IMG/VR virus record: IMGVR_UViG_3300047318_000369
Span: 1 to 64,000 of that record
Reading direction: 5' to 3' (one strand)
Source: a virus
Length of the DNA stretch: 64,000 bases
Shown here: positions 35,621 through 37,037 of the stretch, in pieces
Layout of the letters: every line of letters starts with the position of its first letter
Position numbering within the stretch: the first letter of the stretch is position 1
Notes under the pieces: generated by a model
The model's input: the letters and a program-made list of their open reading frames with translations, nothing else
Databases searched by the model: none
Told to the model about the DNA's origin: nothing
Made by a program: the position numbers and the translations under genes

Positions 35621-36345
35621 GCCGACACACCGCGCCTCACACCTCCTCGACTATTCACGCCCAGGCGTTTCCACCCCACTCGGAACGACTTCCCGACGCC
35701 ACGCGACCGCACCTCATCCCAACTCTTGCCGACTTTTCTTTTCGCCACCGCGCCAGCCTCCACACCCCATGCCGACGGATCAACCCGGGCCGTTACTTCC
35801 CGCCCCTCGTCGACTACGCGCCCCTACGCAGGGCTTCCCGCTGCCGCCCCACCCAGCCGACTTTTCTGCCCCCTCCTGCCCCGCGCAGTTCAGCGCTACC
35901 CATGCCGACTATCCGTCGCTTCACCAACCAGCCCGCTCTGACTCGCGTCGACGTGCCAAGCCCACCCTCACCACGCCGTACCGACTGCCCGACACGAGGC
36001 CCGGCCACCCACCCCATCCCGTGCCGACTTCCCAATCCGGCTCGTCGCCGCACAGTCCGAGCCAAGCCCTCCGACACCCCCGCCCCGGCCTGGACCAGCC
36101 ACCCCGGCCCAGCTCCGACCGACTACCCGGTCCGGCTCGCCACCTCGCCACACATCACGACTCGCTCCAACCGACATGCCATCTCGATCCGCCTCGACCC
36201 GAGCCCGCCCGCAACGACTGCTCTTCCCGTCTCGCCTCGGCGCCCACCGTCCCATGACGACTTGCCAACCCTCCGCAGGCCAGGCCTAGCCGACTACCCA
36301 TTCCAACTCAGCCCACTCCGCCGCAGCCCACACGACCGCCCAGGT
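35621..36345. repeat. array of ~17 CGAC-anchored units built of 5-nt NCC-NN modules (GGN-NN on minus); putative guide-RNA array
   Basis: CGAC anchors at 35648, 35686, 35730, 35773, 35811, 35858, 35906, 35949, 35982, 36025, 36072, 36120, 36172, 36215, 36258, 36291, 36333; spacing mostly 3+5n. Confidence 0.85.
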
Positions 36346-36365
36346 CACCGAAAGGAACTCACCAC

Positions 36366-37037
36366 ATGACCAGCATCTTCGCCAGCTTCACCGACAAGGC
36401 GTGGCCCCACCGCTTCCACGGCACCATCCGCGTGAAGAACATCGCAGGCGGCACGCCGACTGACCCGAAGGTCGCCGAGGGCTGGCTGCGAACCAAACTC
36501 GCCGACAAGGACGACCTGATCCGCGAGATGGTCGCCCAGACCATGGTCGACCGAGGCGTCACCGCCGACGAGGCCGCGAAGCTCGTCGACACCAACAAGC
36601 ACCTCAACGGCTTCCGTCGCGACGAGGACGGCTTGTACATCGAAGGCCGCCAGTTGAAGGCCGCGATCAAGGAAGCCGCGTCCGTCGCCCGCTCCGTCGA
36701 CAAGCTGAAGTCCCGCTGGGGCTCCACCAACAAGGGCGTCCAAGGCTTCGTCGCCGAACACATCATGGTCGTCGAGGACAAGCTCCACCTCGGCGTCACC
36801 GAGCCCACCGGCGTCCTCCAGTCCTTCCCGAAGAACCCGCGCACCGGCCAAACCGGTATCCAGTACACGGAGTTCATCGAGACCGCCGAGTTCGACTTCA
36901 CGGTCATCTCCGACTACGCGTTCACCGACGAAGAGTGGGCCATGCTCTGGCTCACCGGCGAACAGCAGGGCGTCGGCGCTTCCCGCTCGCAGGGCTTCGG
37001 CAGGTACGAGGTCATCAAGTGGGAGGCCACCGCATGA
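36366..37037 (+). CDS. stand-alone RAMP / Cas7-like protein
   Basis: LYIEGRQLKAAIKEA resembles the RAMP IPGSSLKGxxR motif; C-terminal Gly-rich loop GVGASRSQGFGRYEV; AAGGA RBS. Confidence 0.8.
   Translation: MTSIFASFTDKAWPHRFHGTIRVKNIAGGTPTDPKVAEGWLRTKLADKDDLIREMVAQTMVDRGVTADEAAKLVDTNKHLNGFRRDEDGLYIEGRQLKAAIKEAASVARSVDKLKSRWGSTNKGVQGFVAEHIMVVEDKLHLGVTEPTGVLQSFPKNPRTGQTGIQYTEFIETAEFDFTVISDYAFTDEEWAMLWLTGEQQGVGASRSQGFGRYEVIKWEATA

Follow-up and report, generated by a model that had tools for sequence, protein, structure and literature searches.

A probable VIPR locus with cytosine-based repeats in the early region of a temperate actinobacterial phage

The window analysed here, a stretch of 64,000 nucleotides (nt) comprising positions 1 to 64,000 of the IMG/VR virus record IMGVR_UViG_3300047318_000369, very probably carries a VIPR (Viral Interference Programmable Repeat) system. 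Its parts are a gene for a stand-alone RAMP protein (vipr), a long array of pentameric repeats immediately upstream from it, and a second gene, on the far side of the array, that accompanies vipr in many related loci. The record as a whole is 90,552 bases long, has terminal repeats and a G+C content of 69%, and belongs to a temperate phage of Streptomyces-like bacteria (actinobacteria). Our analysis indicates that the locus is genuine and complete; for its function and mechanism we rely on the systems already published.

VIPR systems were first described in 2026 as CRISPR-related, RNA-guided DNA silencers (bioRxiv 10.64898/2026.04.26.720920). The systems combine Vipr with a vap gene (vap1-6) and with vrRNAs made of YNNGG repeats, and they fall into seven types. 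They recognise double-stranded DNA through a two-on, one-off code and silence rival phages, satellites and other VIPR systems. The same preprint illustrates staggered arrays and variant repeats of the forms NNNGG, YNNNG and NNNNG. Cryo-electron microscopy of the SUSP1 system places one protomer on each 5-nt repeat and names the residues in contact with the guanines (10.64898/2026.04.26.720927), in agreement with the arrangement of one RAMP subunit per 5-nt module that a first-pass annotation of the window had proposed. A recombinase active site has been reported as a VIPR guide target (10.64898/2026.10.15.759431), and a genomic language model has returned 21 clusters with non-canonical fixed triplets, GAC/NN and CAC/NN among them (10.64898/2026.10.21.760802). 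The class has thus been published, as have its skip rule, its staggered arrays and its non-canonical repeats; the present locus is a further example with an unusual C-based repeat. The clade to which it belongs may already be classified in the supplementary tables of the VIPR preprints.

The components of the locus lie downstream of a cro-like gene, all on the plus strand and in the following order:

34964-35608, plus strand: partner gene, a 214-aa open reading frame (ORF) whose first ~35 residues are probably outside the protein
35614-36345, plus strand: guide array of ~16 units, each made of CCGAC and 6-9 pentamers N-N-S-Y-C
36350-36356, plus strand: vipr ribosome-binding site GAAAGGA, 9 nt before the ATG, as read from the sequence
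36366-37037, plus strand: vipr, for a 223-aa stand-alone RAMP (Cas7-like)

The 745-nt stretch between the partner gene and vipr is 49% C and 19% G and contains 17 regularly spaced CGAC anchors, from 35648 to 36333. Successive units measure 38, 44, 43, 38, 47, 48, 43, 33, 43, 47, 48, 52, 43, 43, 33 and 42 nt; 11 of these 16 lengths are of the form 5n+3 and four are 5n+2. The units are "staggered", the final CC of one being the first CC of the next, with 45-nt units recurring every 43 nt as the modal spacing. Autocorrelation measured against 200 shuffles yields z-scores of 6.3 at lag 5, 4.8 at lag 10 and 5.7 at lag 43. The same analysis gave no signal at lag 3 (z -0.41), which argues that the array is non-coding. 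A 254-aa Pro/Arg/Thr-rich ORF stays open over the whole array (35605-36369) and might be taken for a gene in annotation, but it lacks 3-nt periodicity and is an artefact that the C-rich repeats produce. A sliding lag-5/10 score singles out the array: the 15 top windows of the 64 kb all fall at 35601-36380 (maximum 0.124; mean -0.013, standard deviation 0.024), and outside the array none of the 4513 windows of the whole 90.5-kb record reaches 0.06. This score was used instead of Fourier power at period 5 (200-nt windows), which failed to single out the array because each unit shifts the phase by 3 nt. Tandem Repeats Finder did not detect the array, and a repeat search returned only a 6-copy, 42-nt family at 64-71% identity within it.

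Composition was taken over the 84 in-phase pentamers of the array. Position 5 is C in 83 of them; position 4 is mostly C (49) or T (17) and position 3 mostly C (41) or G (24). Positions 1 and 2 hold each base at ~25%, despite the G+C content of the record. The array thus alternates a fixed triplet with a free dinucleotide, reading N-N-S-Y-C on the gene strand (fixed letters S-Y-C) and G-R-S-N-N on the opposite strand. The first-pass annotation had pointed to GGY as the fixed letters; these are not found on the gene strand, so that a reading in which this strand is transcribed departs from the canonical letters. Non-GGY letters exclude the canonical type II VIPR form but not membership in the class, because the preprint allows "a related consensus" (10.64898/2026.04.26.720920). 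In other respects the array answers to its first description as some 730 bp of variable units, the 17 anchors now giving ~16 units where ~17 had been counted. Full pentamers stop at 36329, leaving 37 nt to the vipr ATG, and degenerate pentamers continue into the ribosome-binding site, making the ~20 nt first given as the distance to the start codon a fair figure. Guide content turns over fast. In L001, the closest relative (98% identity in Vipr), just one of 14 parsed units recurs with the same dinucleotide series; in L014, L015, L002, L016 and L017 none does.

Vipr displays the hallmarks of a RAMP protein. A helix-1 motif, LYIEGRQLKAAIKEA, occupies residues 90-104 of the 223-aa product, as originally noted, and a glycine-rich loop, GVGASRSQGFG (202-212), lies between a helix (188-201) and the last strand (213-222). 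The motif GVGASRSQGFGRYEV, first described as the end of the protein, is present but sits 7 residues short of the stop, near the end and not at it. The predicted model (pLDDT, predicted local distance difference test, 92.4) matches a type VII Cas7 (8z4l_F, E 4.5e-9) and the Csm3 chain 6ifl_F (E 4.9e-8) in Foldseek. An RRM core, the helix-1 motif and a Gly-rich loop before the last strand are features shared with Cas7, Csm3 and Cmr4 proteins (6IFN chain E, 8YHD chain O). The model identifies Vipr as a RAMP of the Cas7/Csm3 fold, the group to which it had been assigned at the outset. Pfam, PHROGs and a PDB sequence search returned nothing informative for the protein.

Vipr has a single informative match in the phage collection, a 32%-identical "hypothetical protein" of Microcystis phage Mae-JY09; the family therefore reaches cyanophages. 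The Mae-JY09 gene is found at 37749-38450 of PP395641.1, and in related aquatic contigs (L074-L078) the gene is followed by C-rich arrays. One search yielded 1477 family members at E<=0.001 and another 605 clusters at 50% identity. Most members are unnamed or "hypothetical", and the named ones come mainly from Streptomyces and other actinomycetes. When the family (59 members) was aligned by hhalign to the relatives of SUSP1 Vipr (27 sequences), the two profiles matched at 93.6% (E 2e-7) over 126 columns running from helix-1 to the C-terminal strand. The profile match indicates that the family is homologous to SUSP1 Vipr, and the resemblance to VIPR loci suggested in the first-pass annotation is thereby backed by a class now in print. 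One comparison weighs against this: the single SUSP1 Vipr sequence scores only 19% probability (E 1.2e-3) against the family profile. Direct BLASTP gives an E-value of 0.07.

Conservation of the arrangement was assessed in 80 related loci, 13 from genomes and 67 from IMG/VR. The lag score detects a period-5 region in 71 of them, consistent with the periodicity that the first reading expected in the flanks of homologues. Arrays of at least five runs are found in 64 loci and of at least three runs in 72, although three-run clusters may be chance, as the same rule also calls four elsewhere in the phage's own record. The first-pass annotation missed the gene directly upstream (34964-35608). A tblastn search identified homologues of its 214-aa product in 47 of the 80 loci, always upstream of vipr and on the same strand. 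The array lies between the two genes in 41 of these 47; in five others the partner stops 34-54 nt before vipr and arrays lie elsewhere. This pattern identifies the gene as a conserved partner of the system, perhaps a vap-like accessory. The AlphaFold2 model of the protein (pLDDT 85.3, with residues 1-30 near 50) is mostly helical; it has no match at E<=0.001 in a Foldseek search of the PDB and no usable match in the Atlas, and the sequence matches no Pfam or PHROG family.

Some of the related loci depart from the common layout. In L041 (3834-5446), eight tRNA genes directly follow vipr, where other loci have a downstream array. L046 and L050 share a module composed of an inverted array, a ~125-nt spacer, vipr, an ORF of ~175 aa and a second array of opposite orientation, with a strong hairpin after each array. 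The module occurs in different gene neighbourhoods, as if mobile.

Targets could be assigned to two units of the array:

35857-35906, plus strand: unit u6, CCGAC and 9 pentamers, dinucleotides TT TG CC TG CG AG AG TA AT
36171-36215, plus strand: unit u13, CCGAC and 8 pentamers, dinucleotides AT AT GA GC GA GA CG GC

Read with one skipped base per dinucleotide, u6 is matched exactly in two IMG/VR contigs. Both matches are antisense and in codon phase within tyrosine-integrase ORFs, where they spell M-Y-L-L-R-H-G-H-K. We take this site to be box II of tyrosine recombinases; its counterpart in the phage's own integrase, by alignment, is the L-R-H-S-H box. Identity is 48% between the two matched integrases and 26% to that of the phage. 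Over 26 homologous integrase loci, the best match to u6 is 18/18 in two, 17 in eight, 16 in nine, 15 in one and 14 or less in six, as compared to a maximum of 14/18 among 20 shuffles of the dinucleotide order; the phage's own integrase matches at 11/18. A rough empirical null is provided by the other four patterns of 18-20 bases, three of which have no match and one a single, unconvincing match. A joined "u12" pattern of 10 dinucleotides spans the CGACT anchor at 36158, and thus two units, and serves as a null only. These data lead us to predict that u6 targets the catalytic motif of rival tyrosine integrases.

Unit u13 is the sole unit shared with L001. It has more than 120 exact matches in IMG/VR, 80 of which were examined. 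Thirty-two of the 80 are in sense orientation and in phase; they lie 4-14 codons (in most cases 5-6) upstream from the stop codon in a single ORF family of ~140-180 aa, found in contigs of 65-70% G+C; the site spells M-I-E-A-D/E-E-R-A. The 32 sites make up 24 distinct 23-mers that differ at skipped bases only. Three of four target proteins tested match PHROG 12831, "transcriptional repressor" (E 4.8e-5, 2.3e-3 and 9.1e-3), and none of the four matches Pfam. The C-terminus of this small repressor-like family is the probable target of u13. That the target might be a homologue of the phage's own cI-like repressor was ruled out (BLASTP E 5).

The skip rule was also examined across the family, with 427 unique guides (at least 8 dinucleotides, from 64 loci) compared to 1.155 Mb from which the arrays were masked. 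Eleven perfect matches were found at skip 1 and none at skips 0, 2 or 3; three order-shuffled controls gave no perfect match either. All 11, and six of the eight one-mismatch matches, stem from a single guide of locus L022 falling on homologous vipr genes, and the test therefore counts as one event. The guide in question (L022:2923-2967) is the last unit before vipr and spells K-V-A-E-G-W-L-K of vipr genes, antisense and in codon phase. It is perfect in 11 other loci, has one mismatch in six more, and matches the vipr gene of the window at 14/16, differing in the last dinucleotide. This looks like VIPR-against-VIPR targeting, a published target class. The idea, put forward in the first-pass annotation, that the variable dinucleotides specify a gapped target gains support from u6, u13 and the L022 guide, all read under the 1-nt-skip rule.

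A number of results weigh against this picture of guides and targets. Beyond the dependence of the family-wide test on one guide, no perfect match emerged when 418 guides were compared, in a second test, to 0.80 Mb of other viral DNA; the one-mismatch counts were three at skip 1, as against 0, 1 and 3 at skips 0, 2 and 3 and one per shuffle (n=2). Targets were found for only two of the ~15 guides of the window. Matches to the u13 pattern are common, and 48 of the 80 examined fall in unrelated ORFs; the PHROG scores behind the repressor label of its target are weak, one of the four proteins being without a match; and a tyrosine integrase lies near the target in just two of the 32 loci. Unit u11 has one IMG/VR match, in a contig of 55% G+C and with no convincing reading frame. 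In 401 Streptomyces genomes it has no perfect match and 58 one-mismatch places, and the backward-read control is of the same order, its places being scattered (not summed). Units u5 and u10 had no matches in the target search. Against a 0.57-Mb set, the guides of the window gave low-complexity matches only. In favour of the picture, the array contains no self-target: for guides of at least 14 bases, the best agreement anywhere in the phage's own record (90.5 kb) is 83%.

The guide RNA is probably the C-rich strand, co-transcribed with the genes and carrying S-Y-C as fixed letters, and not a G-rich antisense RNA. In the related loci, the vipr strand is the C-rich one in 83 of 88 arrays. This is the reverse of SUSP1, where YNNGG tracts occupy the vipr strand beside annotated 195-aa and 146-aa genes. 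Among 44 upstream-adjacent arrays, 42 stop so close to vipr (median distance 35 nt) that a promoter could not fit in between. Since such arrays lie inside a two-gene unit, transcription of vipr would always include the C-rich strand. Just two upstream arrays are inverted; their spacers measure 121 and 129 nt, and the one in L050 is co-oriented with a neighbouring 840-aa gene. The clearest sign of transcription in the C-rich sense comes from L063, in which a 31-run array begins 11 nt after the vipr stop and is followed, 8 nt past its end, by a plus-strand intrinsic terminator (L063:4654-4699) predicted to form a 16-bp stem with a 4-nt loop, then TTTTTTATTG.

The same system could be read on the opposite strand. 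Its guides would then be G-rich (G-R-S, of the "NNNNG/NNNGG" type), with AGTCGG as a short 3' end, and their promoter, lying within vipr or immediately before it, would drive transcription antisense to the operon of partner and vipr. We hold this to be unlikely. Several points speak for it and hence against the C-rich strand. Characterised vrRNAs are all G-based and have a 3' tail, and the alternatives in print (NNNGG, YNNNG, NNNNG) have guanine-based fixed letters as well (10.64898/2026.04.26.720920). On the G-rich strand, the conserved AGTCGG would stand at the 3' end, like the SUSP1 tail. L046, L050 and L068 each contain arrays in both orientations, so that some arrays must have their own promoter, and the inverted array of L046 lies between two plus-strand genes. 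When 68 arrays were surveyed for their strongest flanking hairpin, it fell 3' of the G-rich transcript in 44 and 3' of the C-rich transcript in 11, a count confounded by coding flanks (often the end of the partner gene) and by palindromy. The strand reading consequently used strand-asymmetric or U-tailed hairpins only. Two such hairpins, after the L046 and L050 arrays, reach -31.7 and -30.4 kcal/mol in the C sense versus -14.6 and -13.9 on the other strand, a difference of ~17 kcal/mol that disfavours G-rich guides. G-rich guides would further require an antisense promoter within ~35 nt of vipr, or inside it, for 42 of the 44 adjacent arrays, and transcription against a two-gene operon in 41 loci. 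They are also difficult to reconcile with the L063 array, bracketed as it is by the vipr stop and the terminator, and with the loss of the SUSP1 residues that contact G1 and G2: where SUSP1 has the guanine contacts D177, W178 and R138, the alignment shows A205, S206 and T170/E171 here. Rfam detected no ribozyme or other family in or near the arrays of the window and 31 loci, and ribozymes therefore cannot fix the array strand.

Taking the C-rich strand as the guide, we lean towards a more specific proposal, namely that this large clade of actinophages has rewritten the protein-RNA grip of VIPR. Its S-Y-C guides would derive from the intercistronic leader between a clade-specific partner gene and vipr, a crRNA (CRISPR RNA)-like 5' CCGAC handle would stand in for the 3' tail, and the guanine-holding residues would have been replaced.

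A different question is whether the complex targets RNA, like the Cas7 backbones of type III CRISPR systems, rather than double-stranded DNA. Type VII and type III CRISPR complexes target RNA, and they are the source of the solved folds nearest to Vipr, Cas7 and Csm3 respectively. Also, if the RNA is the C-rich strand, two of the three assigned guides (u6 and that of L022) run antisense to the mRNA of their target. We nevertheless judge RNA targeting very improbable. The third guide, u13, is in sense orientation and unable to pair with mRNA; published VIPR binds double-stranded DNA and works on either strand; and the two-on, one-off code is documented for the formation of DNA triplexes or R-loops (10.64898/2026.04.26.720927). 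Least credible of all is the notion that the array functions at the level of DNA, as iterons or as binding sites spaced by ~four helical turns, or is simply the 254-aa ORF, with the RAMP-like protein acting elsewhere: the open frame, the regular spacing of the CGAC anchors and the fact that the guide RNA is deduced from sequence alone would allow it, but 3-nt periodicity is lacking, unit lengths step by 5 and not by 3, the two variable positions are unbiased in a G+C-rich record, two units spell codon-phased foreign motifs only if read two-on, one-off, and the array is linked to a Vipr homologue in 64-72 of the 80 loci.

By analogy with SUSP1, the VIPR locus might work as follows. The partner gene, the intercistronic guide array and vipr would form one rightward early operon downstream of the cro-like gene, and the array transcript would be cut into short RNAs of ~45 nt. 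One Vipr protomer would cover each pentamer, holding the three fixed letters and presenting the two variable ones, and the row of dinucleotides would pair with double-stranded DNA, two bases being read and one skipped. The bound DNA would be silenced rather than cut, as suggested by the published systems and by the absence of a nuclease from the three parts. It counts against this scheme that expression, processing, Vipr binding and silencing are all inferred. The system probably serves to put the lysogeny machinery of rival temperate elements out of action when these are encountered during infection or induction, since u6 and u13 spell integrase and repressor-like motifs of other phages and no guide has a target in the phage's own genome.

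Comparison to the type II systems of SUSP1 and of a Pseudomonas fulva prophage reveals both common and distinctive traits. Shared are the stand-alone, profile-homologous RAMP, a small partner gene, the phage location, the lack of cas genes, pentamers with three fixed and two hypervariable letters, one-skip codon-phased targets in rival mobile elements and the absence of a self-target. Type II vrRNAs are ~100 nt long, with 9-16 YNNGG repeats and a structured 3' tail of ~40 nt, whereas the units here span 33-52 nt (~45 nt with a 2-nt overlap) and have no such tail; the fixed letters on the gene strand are S-Y-C in place of G-G-Y. Some 16 guides form one array between partner and vipr, as opposed to one upstream and three downstream in SUSP1, and the partner differs as well, being a 214-aa helical protein without a fold match. 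The staggered vrRNA arrays in print share two features with ours: there, too, the end of a unit is the start of the next and the last fixed letter alone is nearly invariant, although the overlap is CC (2 nt) here and 1 nt in the preprint legend. The printed alternative repeats are G-based, with their strand relative to vipr not stated in the passages available, whereas the letters here end in C; the accessible text of 10.64898/2026.04.26.720920 makes no mention of cytosine or C-rich repeats. The arrays returned by the language model resemble ours in their period of 5, in the Vipr-like folds next to them and in their non-GGY triplets, some of them C-ended, but S-Y-C/NN is not named in the available passages (10.64898/2026.10.21.760802).

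The locus also differs from class 1 CRISPR-Cas systems, having a single protein, a register of 5 nt instead of 6 nt and no CRISPR repeats. The profiles Cas1, Cas2, Cas6_C and Pfam RAMPs had no matches in the 90.5-kb record, in line with the lack of cas1, cas2 and cas6 first reported; Cas3, Cas5 and Cas10, which that report also listed as missing, were not searched separately. No Rfam family, CRISPR ones included, reaches the gathering score in the window, as expected if no classical CRISPR array is present.

Three genes of the adjoining region complete the early landscape:

32008-33234, minus strand: tyrosine integrase (PHROG 1, E 6e-30)
33760-34404, minus strand: cI-like helix-turn-helix (HTH) gene
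34501-34701, plus strand: cro-like HTH gene (HTH_3, E 6e-10)

The position of the locus had originally been given as downstream of cro and of a xis-like gene. The cro assignment is supported; the xis-like label is not, the 78-aa reading concerned (34731-34964) having no Pfam or PHROG match. A sigma-70 promoter scan around the locus found no sites, and a terminator scan of the window produced nothing useful. On the other side, ORFs of 79 aa (37034-37273) and 143 aa (37270-37701) are chained to vipr through overlapping stop and start codons (ATGA). They match no family, are present in only one or two of the closest relatives, and are probably outside the VIPR system; the 79-aa ORF, considered as a candidate vap, was discarded on being found in two of the 80 loci only. 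They are followed by a gene (37698-38009) for a 103-aa HTH protein (HTH_3, E 2e-5) with a C-terminal C-x2-C ... C-x2-C motif; the motif may form a zinc ribbon, and the protein may act as a second early regulator.

This locus, a well-anatomised actinobacterial example of an RNA-guided class only months old, contributes the conserved partner gene, the assignment of two targets to the lysogeny functions of rivals and the question of the guide strand. Aiming one guide at the catalytic box of integrases in rivals and another at a small, regulator-like gene would follow a "hit what cannot mutate" logic, one that has been shown experimentally in E. coli. If the clade has indeed rewritten its protein-RNA grip, one scaffold family has evolved orthogonal RNA "alphabets": several programmable silencers could then operate in one cell without cross-talk, and the phage would be shielded from solo guides of rivals that hijack its Vipr. 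A C-rich guide strand, once confirmed, would make this a naturally orthogonal VIPR scaffold of practical use.

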